The notes below the pieces were generated by a model. It was not told the origin of the DNA. It did not search any database and was given only the letters and a program-made list of their open reading frames with translations. Below are positions 4,788-53,148 of a stretch of DNA of 64,000 bases, piece by piece; position 1 is the first letter of the stretch; each line of letters opens with the position of its first letter. Source of the DNA: Coriobacteriaceae bacterium (lineage in GTDB: Bacteria > Actinomycetota > Coriobacteriia > Coriobacteriales > UMGS124); the NCBI GenBank assembly GCA_019421015.1, contig JAHZGC010000002.1:1619-65618 (forward strand), given 5' to 3'. A program made the translations under genes and the position numbers.

Positions 4788-5346
4788 TCAAGGCACGTTG
4801 TCGCTATCATTTGGGAATGGTATGGCTCACACGGTGCGAGAACCCGGCATTTGACGCGTTCGTCGAAGACATGCGGGCGGCGTTTTGCCGGATTCATGGC
4901 GCTGACGGTCTGTAGCCTGGCAGGATTCCGATGGAATCGGCGGGGTTGGAGGCCGGCGTTTGCCCAAAAGGGCCCTTCGGTGGCCGCATGCGAGGGTCGT
5001 GCGGGATCGTAACAAAGCCGTTGGCGTAAACAGTCAGGTGCAGGATGGTATCAAATTACTAAATTAGCAGGTAGGACGTTTGTGATCCTTGCCCAACTTC
5101 TCAGGCATCGTTGAATTGGCGCTCGGTCATCCCGCACGACCCACCGATGCGGCCACTTGGGAAGCATAAACCGAGAATCGAGGGCATATAACTTTTTATA
5201 TTGATTATCATTTCCCTTCGGCCCCCCGTTCTCACAGCCCATCCCTACCTCGGCCCCCGGCTTTCGACCCCCTGACCTCCATACTTAGGGGGCCGACCCG
5301 CATCCGCAGGCCGGCCCCAGCAGCGAGCCCTTTCTCCCTCTCGCCC

Positions 5347-7059
5347 TTACCCGCGGGCCTGCTCGATGCAGTCGGCCACGGCGCGCAGCAGCGCGATCGA
5401 GGTGTGGGTGGCGCCGCCCACGATGTCGACGTCGGTGCCGTTGGCGGCCGCAATCTCGGCGGGCAGCTGGTCAAAGGCACGGGTGCCGAAGACCGGCGTC
5501 TCGCGGTTCTCGCCCACCTCGACGGCCGCGATGACGCCGCCCTCGATGGTCACGGTCACGTTCATGGGGCCGCCCAGACCGTTGCGCACGGCCTCGTAGG
5601 TGCCGTCGGCGCAGCCCTCGGCCGACACCACGGGCTTCTGGTCCACGAGCCAGTTGTACTTGGCGTGCGTGGCCTCGTCGGCGGCAAGGCTCGCCTCCAC
5701 GGCGTATTCGGGCAGCTCGGTGCCCTCAAAGTCCACGATGCGGTTGGTGGCCATGCGGTCCACCGAGCTCCACACGATCTGGTCGAGCAGGTACGGCTTG
5801 GGGGGAATCTCGTCTTCGGGCTTGAGCTTGAGGATGCGCGCGTCGGCCGGGCACACCAGGGCGCACTGGCCGCAGCCCACGCACCACTTGTCCATGATGC
5901 ACAGGCCGTCCTCGTCCTGGCGCACGGCCATGAGCGGGCAGCGCTCCACGCAGGCCCCGCAGCGCAGGCACTTCTCGGCGTCGTAGTCCAACACGTAGGC
6001 CGAGGCGTTGGGGAACGTGCCGGTCTCGCCCTGCAGCGAACGGTAGGTGCCGAGCAGCGCGCAGTTGTCGCTGCGGCAGAAGCACATGATGTCGGGGTAG
6101 TCGGCGTAGGCGCCCTCGGGTACGTAGCCCAGGTCCACGAGCTTCTCGGCCTCGGCCAGGGCCTCTTCCTTGGTGATGGCGGGCACACCGGTCTCGATAA
6201 AGAACTCCGCCAGCTCGCCAAAGACCATGCAGTGGCAGATGCCCTCCTCGTGCTCCTCCTCGTGGCCGCGCAGGATGGCCTTGTTGCGGCAGCCGCAGGG
6301 CTGGGCGGTAAAGACCGTGTTGCGCTCAAAGATGGCGCGCCAGTCGCGGTAGGGGGCCAGCTTGCCGCCCTCGACCACGTCGGCGCTCACGGGAAACACG
6401 TCGTAGATGGGGTACTGGGCGCCGTTGCCGGCGTCCACGCCCAAGAGGCGGTCGTTCTTCTCGATGAAGTCCTTGTCGATACGGTAGTACAGGTTGGGAA
6501 TGAGCGCGCCCGGCCACGAGTACACGTAGAACCAGTCGACGCCGGCGCGGGTGATGCGGTTGATGAGGCGGCGGTTGGCCAGGTCGTTCAGGATGTCGAG
6601 GGCCTCGGCCTCGCTGCGGTCGGTGAGGCAGGCGTAGTCGTAGGCCGAGAAGCGCTCGAGCAGCGGCAGCTCGTTCCAGTGCTCGGCGTCCTCGAGGCTC
6701 CAGAGCTCCAGGATCATGTCGAAGCTGTAGGCGCCCGGCGTGTTGTTGAGGCCGTTGCTCAGGCGGTTGAGGCGGTTCCACAGGGTCACGTAGGTCTTGT
6801 CGATCACGCGGCCGTCGGGCAGCGTGAGGTCCTCGGTGGCCACCGGCGCGTCCTGGACCATCTTGATCAGCACGTCGCGGTTCTGGTCGAGCAGCTCGTT
6901 GTTAGAAAAGCCGGTGGTGCGCGCCGGCGCGGTGGAGCCGCCGTCGACGTCCTCGGCGAGCGCGACGCCGACTGCGGGGACGGCTGCGGCAGCTGCGGCC
7001 GCGGCTCCCATGGCCCCGATAAAGCCTCTGCGCGAAACGTTCTGGGTGGAGTCGTGCAT
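5347..7059 (-). CDS. Tat-exported 4Fe-4S dicluster protein with C-terminal FMN_bind domain (paralog 1)
   Basis: Start moved to ATG 7059 (GGAAGG SD; the ORF track starts at 7092). Twin-arginine signal SRRGFIG. CxC cysteine clusters and two CxxCxxCxxxCP motifs. C-terminal FMN_bind-like domain with VDIVGGATHTS. Confidence 0.8.
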   Translation of the reverse strand: MHDSTQNVSRRGFIGAMGAAAAAAAAVPAVGVALAEDVDGGSTAPARTTGFSNNELLDQNRDVLIKMVQDAPVATEDLTLPDGRVIDKTYVTLWNRLNRLSNGLNNTPGAYSFDMILELWSLEDAEHWNELPLLERFSAYDYACLTDRSEAEALDILNDLANRRLINRITRAGVDWFYVYSWPGALIPNLYYRIDKDFIEKNDRLLGVDAGNGAQYPIYDVFPVSADVVEGGKLAPYRDWRAIFERNTVFTAQPCGCRNKAILRGHEEEHEEGICHCMVFGELAEFFIETGVPAITKEEALAEAEKLVDLGYVPEGAYADYPDIMCFCRSDNCALLGTYRSLQGETGTFPNASAYVLDYDAEKCLRCGACVERCPLMAVRQDEDGLCIMDKWCVGCGQCALVCPADARILKLKPEDEIPPKPYLLDQIVWSSVDRMATNRIVDFEGTELPEYAVEASLAADEATHAKYNWLVDQKPVVSAEGCADGTYEAVRNGLGGPMNVTVTIEGGVIAAVEVGENRETPVFGTRAFDQLPAEIAAANGTDVDIVGGATHTSIALLRAVADCIEQARG

Positions 7060-47941: not shown

Positions 47942-48202
47942 GGGACTCCTTTGGGGTGGCTCGGGACGGGCTGGGAACGGGCTTGAGGTGAGCGGCTCCG
48001 CCCTGGGGGGCGGACACGGCCTGCAACCGTGCAAGTATAATTGTTGCGATATAAAAAACCATGCGCACAGGTGATTCGCGCGCGCATTACGGCGGGTAAA
48101 AAACGTGCGTGACGCATAGCCTGGCCACCGACACCGCACCGCCCGGCCAGCCGACGCGCAACAGCCCGGCGGCGCGGTTTGAACAAGGATTGAGAGGTCA
48201 TC

Positions 48203-48628
48203 ATGAAGAAACAGACTCAGCGCCCCTCCGCCTCCTTTGCCGACGCCGTTGCACAATGTCACAAGGCCATTGAGCCCGGCATGGTCGCCGGGGCGTTTGG
48301 CGTGCCCGGCTGGGTCGACTGTGCGAGCGGTTGCCTCAGCCGCGTGCAGGGTTGCGCGCAGGTCACGGTGGGCGACATCATGGTGGCCGCAAGCGACCTG
48401 GCCGCCCGATTCAACGGCGAGATAGTGGACTTCTCCCTGCGCTCCGAGGGCGGCGCGCGGGTGTACGCTTTTGAGATCGCTTTCGAGCGCGACGGCGAGG
48501 CGTGCTTGGGGACCGTGGGGTTCTCACCTATCGCCGACGGGACGGTGAGCGTGTTCGCGGCTGCCTGCGGCGCCGACTCCGCCCTGGGCTTTGGGCCCGT
48601 CTACACGCATACGGAGGTCGCGGCGTAG
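48203..48628 (+). CDS. Hypothetical protein (141 aa)
   Basis: ORF with a GAGAGG SD. No recognisable domain. Confidence 0.5.
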   Translation: MKKQTQRPSASFADAVAQCHKAIEPGMVAGAFGVPGWVDCASGCLSRVQGCAQVTVGDIMVAASDLAARFNGEIVDFSLRSEGGARVYAFEIAFERDGEACLGTVGFSPIADGTVSVFAAACGADSALGFGPVYTHTEVAA

Positions 48629-48661
48629 GCGGCGGCATGGCGCGGCAAGCGTGCAGTTTGA

Positions 48662-48700
48662 GGGCCCCGGACCGCGTGCATCGGTCCGGGGCCCTTGTGT
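48662..48700 (+). terminator. Intrinsic terminator
   Basis: A perfect 12-bp stem, GGGCCCCGGACC (48662-48673) with GGTCCGGGGCCC (48683-48694), then TTGTGT. Confidence 0.6.
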
Positions 48701-48807
48701 CGGGTCTGGCTGGAATGGGCCGCTGGTTTCTCCGCCGCGTAGCCCCCATAAGCGCTACACTGTTCCCCATGCGCAATCGACGCACACCAACAAGCTAGGA
48801 GGCACCC

Positions 48808-50046
48808 ATGGCTATGAAGCCGTTCCAGTACGAGCTCATCATGCGCGAGCTCGCCACCATCAAGGAGCGCAGCCCGTTCTACGCCAAGAAGTTCGCCGAC
48901 ATCGACATGGCGACCATCAAGACTCCCGAGGATTTCACCAAACTGCCCTTCTCCGAGAAGGCCGACCTGCGCGAGGCGTACCCGCTCGGTATCCAGGCGG
49001 TGCCCGACGAGCAGGTGGTGCGCATCCACTCGTCGAGCGGCACCACGGGCACGCCGGTCATCATCCCCTACACCCAGAAGGACGTGGACGACTGGGCCGA
49101 TATGTTCGCCCGCTGCTACCGCGTGATCGGCTGCACGCCCACCGACCGCATCCAGATCACCCCGGGCTACGGCCTGTGGACCGCCGGCATCGGCTTTCAG
49201 CTGGGCGCCGAGCGCATGGGCGCCATGGCCATCCCCATGGGTCCCGGCAACACCGAGAAGCAGCTGCGCATGATGATGGACCTGCAGTCCACCGTGCTCT
49301 GCGCCACCTCGAGCTACGCGCTGCTGCTGGCCGAGCGCATCGCCCAGGAGGGCATCCGCGACCAGCTGGCCCTCAAGAAGGGCCTCATCGGCAGCGAGCG
49401 CTGGGGCAAGAAGATGCGCGAGCGCATCGCCAACGAGCTGGGCGTCAAGCTCTACGACATCTACGGCCTGACCGAGATCTACGGCCCCGGCGTGGGCGTG
49501 AGCTGCGAGTACGACTGCGGCATCCACGTGTGGGACGACTACGTGTACCTCGAGGTCGTCGACCCCAAGACCGGCGAGCTGCTGCCCGACGGCGAGGTGG
49601 GCGAGCTCGTGATCACCACGCTCGTGAAGGAGGGCGCGCCGCTCATCCGCTACCGCACCCACGACCTCACGAGCATCATCCCCGGCGAGTGCCCCTGCGG
49701 TATGGGCCACACGCGCATCAGCCAGCTGGTGGGCCGCACCGACGACATGTTCAAGGTCAAGGGCGTCAACATGTTCCCCGCCCAGGTCGAGGAGGTCTGC
49801 GCGGCCGTCGACGGCGTGAGCAGCGAGTACCAGGTCATGATCGATCACCTCAACGGCAAGGACATCATGACGGTCTACTTCGAGTGCACCACCGACGACG
49901 CCATGGAGCGCCGCGCCATCGAGGCCACTGTGCTCGAGACCTTCAAGAACCGCATCGGCGTGACCGTGGTCCCCAAGGCCGTGGGCGTGGGCGACCTACC
50001 CCGCTCCGAGAAGAAGTCCACGCGCATCCTGGACAACCGCTACTAG
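48808..50046 (+). CDS. Phenylacetate-CoA ligase family (PaaK/F390-synthetase-like adenylating enzyme)
   Basis: AGGAGG SD. ...LPFSEKADLREAYPLGIQAV...RIHSSSGTTGTPVIIPYTQKDVDDWA... Confidence 0.8.
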   Translation: MAMKPFQYELIMRELATIKERSPFYAKKFADIDMATIKTPEDFTKLPFSEKADLREAYPLGIQAVPDEQVVRIHSSSGTTGTPVIIPYTQKDVDDWADMFARCYRVIGCTPTDRIQITPGYGLWTAGIGFQLGAERMGAMAIPMGPGNTEKQLRMMMDLQSTVLCATSSYALLLAERIAQEGIRDQLALKKGLIGSERWGKKMRERIANELGVKLYDIYGLTEIYGPGVGVSCEYDCGIHVWDDYVYLEVVDPKTGELLPDGEVGELVITTLVKEGAPLIRYRTHDLTSIIPGECPCGMGHTRISQLVGRTDDMFKVKGVNMFPAQVEEVCAAVDGVSSEYQVMIDHLNGKDIMTVYFECTTDDAMERRAIEATVLETFKNRIGVTVVPKAVGVGDLPRSEKKSTRILDNRY

Positions 50047-50109
50047 CGGCGAAGGGCGACGCGGGGTGCTGCGGCGCGAAGCGCGGCGGCCGGCGTCTCA
50101 CAAGGCGTA

Positions 50110-50153
50110 AACCAACCAGGGCACCTGGGGGAGAAACCCTCAGGTGCCCTGTG
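50110..50153 (+). terminator. Terminator hairpin after the ligase gene (left copy of a duplicated hairpin)
   Basis: CAGGGCACCTG (50117-50127) pairs with CAGGTGCCCTG (50141-50151). It is preceded by AACCAAC, whose complement GTTGGTT follows only the second copy, at 50647-50653. Confidence 0.6.
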
Positions 50154-50273
50154 TGTTTGGGGCGGCTGAGCTAGGCCGGCGTTGAGCCATGCCCCCGTGG
50201 TAAGATTCCCCTGTGCCAGCGGGCTGCGCTACCCAATGCCGAAAGGCGGGCGGCGCAGAAAGGCACGGTAACG

Positions 50274-50435
50274 ATGGAGAAGCTCTACTTCTACGCAACC
50301 TTGGCCGCCGCCCTGGCGACCGTCCTAGACGTCCTCGGCAAGCCCCTCGCTCACGCTGCGGTGCGAGGTGTCAAGAGGTTGACGGGCGGTAGGAGGGGAG
50401 GCGGTGACAAAACGCCCGAAGCACGACCCCGCTAG
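50274..50435 (+). CDS. Small hydrophobic peptide (53 aa), candidate type I toxin-like ORF
   Basis: MEKLYFYATLAAALATVLDVLGKPLAHAAVRGVKRLTGGRRGGGDKTPEARPR has one predicted TM helix and a basic tail. GAAAGG lies 10 nt upstream. Too short for codon statistics. Confidence 0.3.
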   Translation: MEKLYFYATLAAALATVLDVLGKPLAHAAVRGVKRLTGGRRGGGDKTPEARPR

Positions 50436-50466
50436 GCGAGTTCCGCGGTAGGGGGTAACCCGCCCC

Positions 50467-50556
50467 CAAAAAAAGAAGAGGCCGGGTACCCCTACCCGGC
50501 CTAAGTCTCAAACCGCGCTGCCCGCCCACACGACTAGGCATGGCTCGCTGGCACAC
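50467..50556 (-). ncRNA. Candidate ~85-90-nt sRNA convergent with the small ORF
   Basis: On the minus strand, TTCTCA (50589-50584), a 17-nt spacer and TATAAT (50566-50561) form a promoter. A perfect 10-bp hairpin AGGCCGGGTA/TACCCGGCCT (50502-50479) is followed by CUUCUUUUUUU. Confidence 0.35.
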
Positions 50557-50611
50557 ATCCATTATACCCGCCGTCAACGACTTTGAGAAGAGTCGTAGCA
50601 TCCCAATCAAT

Positions 50612-50653
50612 CAGGGCACCTGGGGGAGACACCCTCGGGTGCCCTGGTTGGTT
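50612..50653. repeat. Right copy of duplicated terminator hairpin
   Basis: CAGGGCACCTGGGGGAGACACCCTCGGGTGCCCTG (50612-50646) is 33/35 identical to 50117-50151 and is followed by GTTGGTT. Confidence 0.8.
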
Positions 50654-50761
50654 GAGGATGTCTTCGCGATTGGCTGACCGAACGGCTTGCTTTTAAACGT
50701 GTTATTATACGGGTATTTATTTGTGCATATAACCGCGCATTTGTCATCCATAGGAGTACCC

Positions 50762-51127
50762 ATGGTTCCCAACGCCATCCTCGACAGGGTCAACGAGGTG
50801 CGAAACGCCGTAACCGGCTGTCGCAGAATCAGCGTGACCGACCTCACCCGCGGAAAAGATTGGCGCTCGATGCTGCCAGAGGCCGGCATCATGGAGGTTA
50901 CCGACCGGGGGGACACGGCCGGCTGGCTGGTGTCCGACTCCGACATGCGGGCTATGGTCGAGGAATATAACCGCCTTGAGGAGGAGCTCGAACGCGCGCA
51001 AATCGCCGCGATGTTCGCAGAACGGGAAGCGTCGCATCCTTTGACGGGCAACGACCTGGCCGCTGGCGTGCGTTCCGTGTTCGAGGCCCGCAAACAGGAG
51101 CTCATGGGGATTGTTGCTGATGATTAG
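50762..51127 (+). CDS. Phd/YefM-like antitoxin
   Basis: ATG 50762 after AGGAG. ...RISVTDLTRGKDWRSMLPEAGIMEVTDRGDTAGWLVSDSDMRAMVEEY fits the Phd/YefM N-terminal fold pattern. Overlaps the next gene by 8 nt. Confidence 0.55.
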   Translation: MVPNAILDRVNEVRNAVTGCRRISVTDLTRGKDWRSMLPEAGIMEVTDRGDTAGWLVSDSDMRAMVEEYNRLEEELERAQIAAMFAEREASHPLTGNDLAAGVRSVFEARKQELMGIVADD

Positions 51128-51518
51128 CGAGGCGGTGCTGCTCGAAGCCGCCGAGGCCGTCTCCGCCGTCAAAGGGCTGGCCATGGATCCGAACGACCTT
51201 GTCGAGGACGTCTTTCTTCTTGCCTACGCCTTTCCCGAAGAACGGGACTTCAAGGCCGCCGTAGCGAGCACGTGTCGTGCCCTGGGGCGTCTGGTCGCCG
51301 AAGCCGTGACACCCTCCGATTTGAAGTATGACCTGTCCGGTTGGAGCTCGTATCACTACCAGCCCTGGGTCGGGCAGGGCGTCAGGGCGATGTGCCGGAT
51401 TATGTTCAGACGCATCGAAGGCGGCATCGAGGTCAAGGGGTTCGGGCACCGGCGCATCCCCGAAGACTTTTACCGCCGCATGGGCGCGGGAAGGATGCCG
51501 GCCGATCCCAGCGCATAG
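51120..51518 (+). CDS. RelE/ParE-superfamily-like toxin (long form)
   Basis: C-terminal ...CRIMFRRIEGGIEVKGFGHRRIPEDFYRRM resembles the RelE/ParE signature (R-I-x-[YF]...I-x-V-x-x-[IF]-G-H-R...Y). ATGATTAG start/stop overlap with the antitoxin. Confidence 0.5.
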   Translation: MISEAVLLEAAEAVSAVKGLAMDPNDLVEDVFLLAYAFPEERDFKAAVASTCRALGRLVAEAVTPSDLKYDLSGWSSYHYQPWVGQGVRAMCRIMFRRIEGGIEVKGFGHRRIPEDFYRRMGAGRMPADPSA

Positions 51519-51567
51519 CCGGGTCTACGGTCGTTCTCCCCGCGCCCTAACACGTGCGGCGCCTGCC

Positions 51568-53148
51568 TTACGCCTTGGCCAGGTGCTCCAGGCGGAAGTT
51601 GCCCAGGGGCGTCTGGATCCAGCCGGTGATGTCGGTGCGGTAGGCGTTGCACCAGGGGGTCACGAACAGCGGGATGTTCACGGCCTGCTTGCGGAACGCC
51701 TGCTGGATCTGGGCGTAGAGCTCCTTGCGGATCTCGTTGTCGAGCTCCACGTTGGCGGCGTCGTTGATGGCCACCAGCTCCTCGGGCTGCTCAAAGTTGG
51801 TGAAGCAGCCGTAGTTCACGTCAAAGCTGAACAGGAAGTGCATGAACTCCGCCGGGTCCTGGACGTCGTCGCTCCAGCCCGAGACCAGGATGTCGAAGTC
51901 GCGGTCGGCGCGGGCCTGCGAGAACGATGTGGCCTCGCGCGCGTCGAGCTCCAGGGTCACGCCGATCTGGGCCCACTGCTGCATGAGGATCATCGCGATC
52001 TGCTCCTGGGTGGCGTTGCCGCCGCGCAGAAGGACGCGCAGGCTAAAGCCGTCGGGGTAGCCGGCCTCAGCGAGCAGCGCCTTGGCGGCCTCGACGTTTG
52101 CCACCGCCGGCTCGATCGAGTGGTCGCAGAACTCCGAGGTCGGGGCAAAGACGCTGCCCACGGCCGTGGCGTAGCCGTACGAGAGCGCGTCGACGAACTC
52201 TTGGGCGTCGGTGGCCTCGTAGAGCGCCTCGCGCACGGTCTCGTTGGCCAGGTACTCGTTGGCCACGTTGCACGAGAGGAAGGTGACGTTGGTCGAGGGG
52301 TCGGGGCTCACGACCACGCTGCTGTCGCTCGAGAGCTGCATGAGCGTGGAGAAGGGCAGGTCGGTGGCGATGTCGATGTCACCGGCCTGGAGCTGGAGCT
52401 GGCGCGAGGTGTCCTCGGCAACCACCTTGAACTCGATCTCCTGGGTGAGCGGCAGCCCGGCCTCGCGGTAGTTGGGGTTGGCGGCCAGGGTCAGGTACTC
52501 GCCCTTCCTCCACTCCTTGATCATGTAGGGGCCCGCGCCGATGACGTCGGTCATGTAGCCCTCGTCGCCCACCTGGTCAAAGTGGGCCTTGGACTGCACG
52601 CCCAGCGTGAAGATGCACAGGTTGGCCATGGTGGAGGCGGCCGGCTCCTTGGTCACGACGATCACCGTGGTGTCGTCGGGGCACTCCACGTGGTCGATGT
52701 TCTCGACGCACATGTGCCAGTTGGAGTCCTCGGCCTCGATGGCGCGGTTAAAGGTGAACTCCCAGTCGGCGGCGGTCACGGGGGTGCCGTCCGAGAAGAG
52801 CAGGCCGGGCTTCACGGTGAACGTGTAGGTGGTGCCGTCCTCGGAGACCTCCCAGCTTTCGGCCAAGCAGGGCTCGATGGACTCGCCGTCGTCGGAGGTC
52901 TTGACGAGGCCTTCGAGGATGAGGTTGAACACGAAGATGTTCTGGTTGCCGATGCAGGTCACCGGGTCGAGGTTGTCGGAGTCGACGGCGCGGCCGATGA
53001 CGATGCGGCTGGAAGCGCTGGCGTCGGCGCTGTCGGCGAGCGCGGCACCGGTGCCGTTCAGCGCGTAGCCACCGAAGGCGACCAGGGCACCGAGGGCGGC
53101 GGTGCCGCGCAAAAAGCCGCGACGGTCGAGGCTGGACAGGCAGTTCAT
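51568..53148 (-). CDS. ABC transporter substrate-binding protein, family 5 (peptide/nickel type)
   Basis: Start set at ATG 53148 after AAGGAGG. Tat-like signal LDRRGFLRGTAALGALVAFGG. Typical SBP_bac_5 body (...LEGLVKTSDDGESIEPCLAESWEVSEDG...). Confidence 0.85.
   Translation of the reverse strand: MNCLSSLDRRGFLRGTAALGALVAFGGYALNGTGAALADSADASASSRIVIGRAVDSDNLDPVTCIGNQNIFVFNLILEGLVKTSDDGESIEPCLAESWEVSEDGTTYTFTVKPGLLFSDGTPVTAADWEFTFNRAIEAEDSNWHMCVENIDHVECPDDTTVIVVTKEPAASTMANLCIFTLGVQSKAHFDQVGDEGYMTDVIGAGPYMIKEWRKGEYLTLAANPNYREAGLPLTQEIEFKVVAEDTSRQLQLQAGDIDIATDLPFSTLMQLSSDSSVVVSPDPSTNVTFLSCNVANEYLANETVREALYEATDAQEFVDALSYGYATAVGSVFAPTSEFCDHSIEPAVANVEAAKALLAEAGYPDGFSLRVLLRGGNATQEQIAMILMQQWAQIGVTLELDAREATSFSQARADRDFDILVSGWSDDVQDPAEFMHFLFSFDVNYGCFTNFEQPEELVAINDAANVELDNEIRKELYAQIQQAFRKQAVNIPLFVTPWCNAYRTDITGWIQTPLGNFRLEHLAKA

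Follow-up and report, generated by a model that had tools for sequence, protein, structure and literature searches.

The window analyzed here is a 64,000-nt stretch of contig JAHZGC010000002.1 (assembly GCA_019421015.1) from a gut Eggerthellaceae-type bacterium, and the coordinates given below are those of the window. Behind a phenylacetate-CoA ligase-like gene, here called paaK, it carries two near-identical long hairpins that bracket 442 bp of other sequence. To our preferred explanation we give about even chances: the twin, locus-specific stem-loops would act as plus-strand terminators and insulators around a type I toxin-antitoxin-like module. The 442-bp interval is a discrete unit with a promoter, a 5′ untranslated region (5′UTR), a 53-codon open reading frame (ORF), and a convergent small RNA (sRNA) gene that has a promoter and terminator of its own. 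That the unit is transcribed, where its transcripts end, whether the peptide is toxic, how the regulation works, and how the locus arose are all points that we infer from sequence.

Twin hairpins behind paaK

The two hairpins have in common a core, CAGGGCACCTGGGGGAGA[A/C]ACCCTC[A/G]GGTGCCCTG, found at 50117-50151 and again at 50612-50646 with 33 of 35 positions identical and two differences. This repeat was reported in an initial annotation of the DNA and it is confirmed here, as not one of 100 dinucleotide shuffles of the window has even a single match to the 35-nt core. A repeat search widens the match. It aligns 50110-50162 with 50605-50657, 53 nt at 85% identity, the gain coming from AACCAACC/AATCAATC on the left side and from some of the G/T-rich tail on the right. 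The left copy (50110-50162, plus strand), followed by UGUGUUUGGGG, is a terminator-like site of 15 pairs behind paaK, and an intrinsic-terminator scan picks it out on the plus strand. The right hairpin (50598-50661, plus strand, with the repeated part at 50605-50657) is a complete stem-loop of 29 bp. Its stem, at −53 to −56 kcal/mol, overruns the repeat by 6 bp on each side (GCAUCC/GGAUGU; GCUUCU... in the strain locus L034), and since the pairing goes past the repeat, the right copy is taken as the complete palindrome and the left as a partial copy of 43-53 nt.

As plus-strand RNA, the left copy folds at −38.2 kcal/mol (z = −5.2) and the right at −49.2 kcal/mol (z = −8.1). The minus-strand folds are weaker, at −32.1 kcal/mol for the left and −33.2 kcal/mol for the right, as the stem imperfections take the form of G-U pairs in the plus-strand RNA. 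A U-rich tail is more marked at the left copy than at the right. At the right copy the stem is present and the U-tract is weak in the window and in most strains, and CGGUUUUCG comes after the hairpin in L051, a short allele described below. The left hairpin would then be an intrinsic terminator for paaK and also a shield in front of the peptide promoter, and the right one would serve as terminator of the peptide mRNA and as insulator before the operon downstream.

Variation among strains can be followed at 20 loci that span both sites, the window itself and 19 metagenome contigs of the same species. Both copies are kept in 20 of the 20, at a distance of 495-496 bp. The left copy is invariant in all of them despite a variable adjoining spacer, which in L034 has lost 16 nt. 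Four haplotypes are seen at the right copy, with the stem kept in every one and folds from −49 to −56 kcal/mol; the variants consist of AACCAACC versus AAUCAAUC, a G>A opposite one C>U change, and three different loop bases. Strain differences within the hairpins are C>U changes that preserve G-U pairs, plus that one compensating G>A. The haplotypes of L034 and L032 have the exact AACCAACC in the right copy.

No further copy of the hairpin or of the insert was found by short-word BLAST and fuzzy stem searching in the 3.9-Mb genome beyond the known pair, and the sequence between the hairpins is single-copy in the assembly. Scans for the exact hairpin pattern in GTDB representative genomes, JGI metagenome contigs, and viral contigs gave no match, and a degenerate version of the pattern matched only unrelated perfect palindromes in these collections.

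A peptide gene and a convergent sRNA gene

The initial annotation gave the insert a small ORF, a promoter, and a terminator, of which the ORF and promoter stand, while the terminator is on the minus strand and belongs to the convergent sRNA gene. The promoter is of the extended −10 type, TGGTAAGAT at 50198-50206 on the plus strand, and its TGnTAnnnT pattern is kept at the same place in two diverged homologous loci, L080 (TGGTAGACT) and L082 (TGCTAAAAT). The peptide mRNA would start near 50212-50214, with a 5′UTR of 62 nt (50212-50273, plus strand) whose sequence is conserved in L080 and L082. Spaced along the 5′UTR on the same strand are box A (50212-50226), complementary to 50541-50555; a GCC-GAAA-GGC hairpin (50238-50247); box B (50246-50256), complementary to 50515-50525; and a Shine-Dalgarno motif, AGAAAGG (50258-50264), located 9 nt before the ORF. 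The ORF, MEKLYFYATLAAALATVLDVLGKPLAHAAVRGVKRLTGGRRGGGDKTPEARPR (50274-50435, plus strand), encodes a peptide that begins MEKLYFYATLAAALATVLDVLGK... and has a hydrophobic N-terminal helix and a cationic tail of net charge +6, making it a candidate type I toxin. Neither Pfam nor NCBIfam has a family match to it. The peptide appears to be under moderate constraint and its translation is modestly supported, the ratio of nonsynonymous to synonymous substitution (dN/dS) being 0.46 for the window versus L080 and 0.28 for the window versus L082.

Opposite in direction is a candidate sRNA of about 90 nt (50465-50556, minus strand), the putative antitoxin, predicted by folding to have a 5′ stem-loop and then a terminator. 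The terminator scan, which calls this site on the minus strand, places the stem at 50502-50479, with an A-run at 50470-50476 and the U-run extending to about 50468. The sRNA promoter, TTCTCA-17-TATAAT (50589-50561, minus strand), has 10 of 12 matches and is the only sigma-70-type site that a consensus scan finds in 49900-51700. When the 5′ half of the sRNA gene is read on the plus strand, it contains boxes B′ (50515-50525) and A′ (50541-50555), the complements of the 5′UTR boxes. The sRNA −10 is kept in L080 (CCATTATACCC) and in L051 (CATAAT), and the sRNA gene is 97-98% conserved in L051. Searching Rfam with 48000-53000 gave nothing at E ≤ 1 except a chance microRNA match.

The locus has the parts expected of a type I system, an ORF for a small hydrophobic peptide of fewer than 60 amino acids with its own promoter and ribosome-binding site and, at the level of sequence, an adjacent sRNA gene with its own promoter and terminator.

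Homologous modules in other contexts

With the peptide as query, phmmer against 1.8 billion cluster representatives finds P0123 (51 amino acids, 54% identity, E = 1e-6) and P0124, a mis-called fusion; a word-index protein search has no match but the peptide itself. The contigs of these two proteins are L080/L081 and L082. At the DNA level, L080 827-1207 aligns to window 50181-50571 with 72% identity. Overall the cassette core, 50178-50575, has diverged homologues in L080/L081 at 72% and in L082 at 80% over the 5′ half (50196-50381). What is kept in the homologues is the TGnTAnnnT promoter, the 5′UTR with its GAAA-loop hairpin, the ORF, the sRNA terminator, a 17-nt block ACCGCGCTGCCCGCCCA, and the sRNA −10. 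The stem of the sRNA terminator has a compensatory change in L080, from GGCCGGG/CCCGGCC to GGCCCGG/CCGGGCC. Covariation in this terminator and in helix B, described below, was checked sequence by sequence, alignment-column counts being unsuitable since loop-length differences shift the columns.

Besides the module, the L080 contig has a resolvase, a gene with a SHOCT domain, and hypothetical genes. The 3′ end of the module in L082 has given way to an antitoxin-like segment and a toxin-like gene of PIN type, as judged from the translation by eye with no Pfam hit, and it looks as if a type II pair had overwritten the module there or been fused to it. The L082 stretch 237-1124 has the peptide ORF without its C-terminal tail and without the sRNA gene, and the frame reads on into a RelB/DinJ-like segment and then the PIN-like gene, these also being recognized by eye. 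A coincidence of breakpoints inside the ORF that L051 and L082 seemed to share vanished on closer alignment.

Hairpins or comparable flanking repeats are found around none of the modules of L080, L081, and L082, and the window hairpins sit 16 and 30 nt outside the conserved core. Since diverged modules occur in unrelated contexts without the hairpins, the module is considered portable and the hairpins local. Insert DNA was also sought in 19 genomes of the family, 400 genomes of the order, plasmids, and phages with no match, only the neighboring type II pair being matched, at about 69%, and a peptide profile run over the 400 order genomes returned only low-complexity noise; the family is a rare one. 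The search for other copies of the insert, which the initial annotation had put forward, therefore ends with none in its own genome and only the diverged homologues (72-80%), which have no similar flanking repeats.

RNA pairing and how the module might work

Two helices connect the 5′UTR to the segment occupied by the sRNA gene. Helix A pairs 50212-50226 with 50541-50555 (15 bp), and helix B pairs 50246-50256 with 50515-50525 (11 bp), so that the sRNA gene nearly repeats the peptide-gene 5′UTR in inverted orientation. The predicted duplex between the 5′UTR and the 3′ segment has an energy of −62.4 kcal/mol for the window, −67.1 kcal/mol for L034, and −58.0 kcal/mol for L080; duplexes of shuffled sequence are at −35.8 ± 4.6 kcal/mol, and 0 of 500 reach the observed values. 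Helix A in L080 has a two-sided compensatory change, AG>GA together with CT>TC, and a position of the 5′UTR/3′ helices that is C or U depending on the strain still pairs, as G-U.

The working that we propose begins with the left copy, which would stop paaK transcription just upstream of the peptide promoter. The lack of a plus-strand U-tract at the sRNA terminator leads us to expect that the peptide mRNA runs on to the right hairpin; the mRNA would cross the sRNA gene in antisense and terminate at the right copy, which in that position would shield the adjacent ParE/RelE-type operon from peptide transcription. Given this read-through, the complementarity of the sRNA to the mRNA would be perfect, in the manner of a cis-antisense RNA. 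The long 3′UTR could pair with its own 5′UTR such that the mRNA closes on itself, as in hok mRNA, and the sRNA would bind, or compete, at the same 3′ segment, where 3′UTR and sRNA would make a perfect duplex. A further scheme is a long shot. In it, the sRNA would act less as a classical antisense antitoxin than as a mimic of the toxin mRNA 5′UTR, with boxes A and B common to the two, that competes for the 3′UTR segment; exchange between the closed mRNA and the sRNA-3′UTR duplex would decide the fate of the mRNA, and the palindrome would double as a landing or copy point for cassette capture behind genes that have no linked recombinase.

As to how the arrangement came about, the module may have arrived beside a pre-existing long terminator palindrome, or may have carried the palindrome in, with about 43-53 nt then copied to the other side. 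Arrival next to, or together with, the palindrome followed by partial copying is the most likely history. Nothing indicates present-day mobility.

The search for an empty site and the short allele L051

The initial annotation led one to look in sister genomes for the uninterrupted hairpin, and no such empty site was found on searching the 20 assemblies of the species, the 400 order genomes, and the collections of GTDB, JGI, and viral sequences. Inspection of the nearest relatives by paaK (P0001-P0005 and P0014) gave none either, as they have unrelated terminators, the order paaK-TSCPD-Rrf2, or some other toxin-antitoxin pair.

The sole allele found with a single hairpin is L051, one contig, which is the closest relative by paaK protein. 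It has paaK, about 25 nt, then window 50366-50646 at 94% identity, and then directly the SBP_bac_5 gene that in the window follows the type II pair. Missing are 50072-50365, which includes the left hairpin, the peptide promoter, and two thirds of the ORF, and about 50666-51564, which includes the type II pair. Half of the cassette is retained, with the sRNA gene, its promoter, and its terminator intact, and the left break is not at the hairpin border. Because L080 shows the complete module to be ancestral, L051 is a deletion derivative and not an empty site. The contig (1-4105) is composite. Its nt 1-2580 are identical (100%) to another species (POR-GGDEF-paaK), with the switch inside paaK, and the rest of paaK is 99-100% identical to the window and the end of the SBP_bac_5 gene 99%. 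The switch may come either from chimeric assembly or from true recombination; from its identity to the window, the right part of L051 is a variant allele of the window's species.

Weighing the explanations

Several observations count against terminators around a toxin-antitoxin module. In the window strain, a clear U-tract is lacking at the right hairpin. The hydrophobicity of the peptide is no more than moderate, with a Kyte-Doolittle value of about 1.2 over 19 residues (1.2-1.7 as a range) and an Asp in the helix, and dN/dS is about 1 for L080 versus L082. The family amounts to three diverged members with none in the 400 order genomes, so that the covariation is drawn from very few sequences. 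The sRNA has the same sense as the 5′UTR, not the opposite one, and its complementarity to the mRNA requires the latter to extend to the right hairpin. The informative short allele is one metagenome contig, itself a two-species composite upstream. Some of this could be turned to the view that the terminators are real and what they enclose is something other than toxin-antitoxin, either an ordinary small-protein gene with a cis-antisense or 5′UTR-like sRNA, or an untranslated ORF with a non-coding RNA pair. That the peptide is moderately hydrophobic and matches no known toxin family would fit, as would the sense of the sRNA, and the 27-nt ACCTTGGCCGCCGCCCTGGCGACCGTC within the ORF, identical between the window and L080 and in L082 minus one codon, could reflect constraint on RNA. 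However, length, start codon, Shine-Dalgarno, frame, and the helix with cationic tail all persist where peptide identity is down to 54%, and conserved codons show synonymous changes. The convergent layout of small ORF and sRNA, the closing 5′-3′ helix, and the nearness of type II pairs, in two contexts independent of each other, are what type I systems typically show, and the short allele destroys the ORF yet retains the sRNA gene with promoter and terminator. We regard a non-toxin unit as unlikely.

The remaining explanations make the hairpins part of a mobile element. In the one nearest to the initial annotation, an element of about 460 bp integrated site-specifically in a single paaK terminator hairpin, a segment of 35-43 bp was duplicated as attL and attR, and the recombinase acted in trans or was lost. 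For this it can be said that direct repeats are within 16-30 nt of the borders of a demonstrably portable cassette, that the left AACCAACC and right GGTTGGTT would restore a perfect hairpin, and that synteny breaks behind paaK, where L049 carries a different toxin-antitoxin pair. The statement that AACCAAC precedes the left copy and that GTTGGTT follows only the right is literally correct, but omits the right copy's own complementary left flank. The right stem reaches 6 bp past the repeat toward the supposed insert, whereas the reconstructed hairpin has no pairing beyond AACCAACC/GGTTGGTT, and the left flank AACCAACC belongs to both copies in L034 and L032. If one hairpin had been split and duplicated, the left flank of the right copy would be insert DNA and its 6-bp match to the chromosomal right flank would be a coincidence, at about 1% by our estimate. 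There is no recombinase ORF in 50152-50611 and no tyrosine recombinase (PF00589) on the 271-kb contig C12, the element is single-copy, the L080-L082 cassettes are without such flanking repeats, the empty site was seen in none of the assemblies and relatives searched, and the break of the sole single-hairpin allele falls within the cassette and away from the repeat. We accordingly see no support for a single ancestral hairpin split by an insertion. The idea of a captured, self-contained mini-cassette of foreign type is retained, given diverged homologues in other contexts and the synteny break, and the att-like site-specific insertion, having neither recombinase nor empty site, we hold to be decidedly unlikely. 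A short unit that has no transposase but is capped at both ends by similar hairpins of like orientation also calls to mind a non-autonomous, palindrome-associated IS200/IS605-type element. A Y1 transposase acting from another locus would then move the 544-bp unit with its hairpins in single-stranded form, and the genome does have two Y1 transposases, at C34:68016 and C18:20309. Against it, the unit is single-copy in this genome and found in no other, no similar hairpin is near either Y1 gene, and the module homologues have no hairpins; the hairpins bound by the IS608 transposase are much shorter and less perfect than these stems. It was already disfavoured and is very improbable. Integron attC sites have core sites with the consensus GTTRRRY/RYYYAAC, which GTTGGTT/AACCAAC fits at 6 of 7 positions, and a cassette with an imperfect palindrome in direct orientation could be read as a gene cassette with attC-type sites. 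Toxin-antitoxin cassettes are common in chromosomal integrons (PMC11023631), which adds to the likeness. This reading too was already disfavoured, and we give it next to no weight, as there are two copies only and no array, no integrase gene on the contig, an imperfect core-site match with the 3′ core missing at the left copy (GTTGGTT is at the right copy only), and no such site at the homologous modules.

Genomic surroundings

The PaaK-type gene (412 amino acids, 48808-50046, plus strand) has the Pfam domains AMP-binding and AMP-binding_C_2, and its homologues carry the source name phenylacetate-CoA ligase. Downstream of the right hairpin there is an AT-rich promoter region and then two small genes that overlap by 8 nt, an antitoxin-like gene of 121 amino acids (50762-51127, plus strand), its role being assigned from the partner gene, and a gene for a toxin of 132 amino acids with a ParE/RelE-superfamily fold (51120-51518, plus strand). 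Neither product has a sequence match in Pfam, NCBIfam, or the PDB. The AlphaFold2 model of the 132-amino-acid product, made from 38 homologues, has a predicted local distance difference test (pLDDT) score of 84.6. Among its first 20 Foldseek matches there is nothing but ParE, RelE, YoeB, YafQ, or HigB toxins, the best being PrpT (7ycs_A) with probability 1.00 and a template modeling (TM) score of 0.73. From this modeled fold, 50762-51518 is predicted to be a type II toxin-antitoxin pair. The family of the 132-amino-acid product is from Eggerthellaceae-type sources only. In strains L040, L043, and L052-L054 the toxin gene is called as a product of 70 amino acids, which suggests truncation there. 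The type II pair is followed by the SBP_bac_5 gene (51568-53148), which is convergent. A 10-nt identity, CAAGGCGTAA, between the left side of the left hairpin and the end of this gene was set aside as chance, several such matches being expected in 3 kb.

Related genera have the order DUF3783-paaK-TSCPD-Rrf2. In the present genome TSCPD-Rrf2 is on another contig, in a TSCPD-Rrf2-cytidylate kinase block at C21:18831-22165 and not behind paaK, and therefore the stretch behind paaK is a synteny break, with a rearrangement breakpoint immediately after that gene. In L049, where paaK has 88% nucleotide identity, there is behind paaK a 430-nt spacer (5242-5674) with repeated GGGAAGT/GGAAAG-type motifs in both orientations, and after the spacer a 96-amino-acid gene and a PIN-domain gene form the different toxin-antitoxin pair of that position.

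A genome-wide hunt for other locally duplicated hairpins turned up two things only, a tandem repeat that lies in a large ORF and a common family of terminators of the GGGGCTTCTCC type, neither of them related to the pair behind paaK. Terminator-like hairpins with stems GGGGCTTCTCCGC...GCGGAGAAGCCCC are at no fewer than 10 loci, at least that many being counted in the genome, among them C12 at about 48.0 kb (window about 46.4 kb). Two near-identical 42-nt copies of the GGGGCTTCTCCGC...GCGGAGAAGCCCC hairpin are 3.4 kb apart at C23:98771/102173. At C23:32027-33200, a long minus-strand ORF for a repeat-domain protein has 591 bp duplicated near-perfectly in tandem, and the duplication contains a 37-nt hairpin twice. 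Palindromes at C2:33591 and 37356, 3.8 kb apart with the common core TGTTTCACGTGAAACA, resemble operator sites of one regulator.

Relation to known systems

The described type I families (Hok, Fst, TxpA, BsrG, Ldr, Ibs, TisB, ShoB, ZorO, DinQ, SymE, and AapA, with their RNAs) have no peptide or RNA match to the cassette by Pfam, NCBIfam, and Rfam, and the cassette is probably a new type I toxin-antitoxin family, so far undescribed. Almost all known type I families come from Proteobacteria and Firmicutes. In a survey of such systems (PMC5367252), the described families except SymE are each confined to one phylum, with examples from Proteobacteria and Firmicutes, and Actinobacteria go unmentioned. 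If the assignment is right, a peptide/sRNA module in gut Coriobacteriia-type bacteria would extend the type I kind to a new lineage. The design, a hok-like 5′-3′ closure with a 3′-overlapping sRNA that copies the 5′UTR, is tidy and testable, and there are natural alleles with the peptide gene deleted and the sRNA retained. The duplication of a hairpin is by itself a modest curiosity; its interest is that the twin hairpins would show how the module is walled off in transcription from both its neighbors, a metabolic gene and a type II toxin operon.

Integrative elements, attC cassettes, and IS200/IS605 derivatives are similar to this locus in that direct repeats or hairpins border a short cargo unit, and differ in that the unit here is single-copy with no linked recombinase or transposase and no empty site. 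The resemblance to intrinsic (Rho-independent) terminators, and to their duplication at accessory-gene slots, is in the GC-rich stem-loop directly behind a gene, the U-rich tail at the left copy, and the better fold on the transcribed strand, although the stems are unusually long, up to 29 bp and −49 to −56 kcal/mol, and come as two near-identical copies 495 bp apart. Among toxin-antitoxin systems, txpA/RatA, bsrG/SR4, and yonT/SR6 of Bacillus subtilis have convergent genes for a toxin and an antitoxin RNA of about 100 nt that overlap at the 3′ ends, peptides of 38-59 amino acids, and loci that are often in mobile or variable regions (PMC5848175). The present module has no homology to them (Pfam, NCBIfam, and Rfam being negative), its overlap needs read-through of the sRNA terminator, and its sRNA is a near-copy of the toxin 5′UTR. 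From hok/sok, of plasmid R1 and of chromosomes, it differs in having no sequence or Pfam kinship, in an sRNA that overlaps the 3′UTR and not the translation start, in the lack of a mok-like leader frame, and in its host, a Coriobacteriia-type actinobacterium. What it has in common with hok/sok is a small membrane-type peptide, a small antisense RNA with a strong promoter, and an mRNA whose 5′ end is predicted to pair with its 3′ end.

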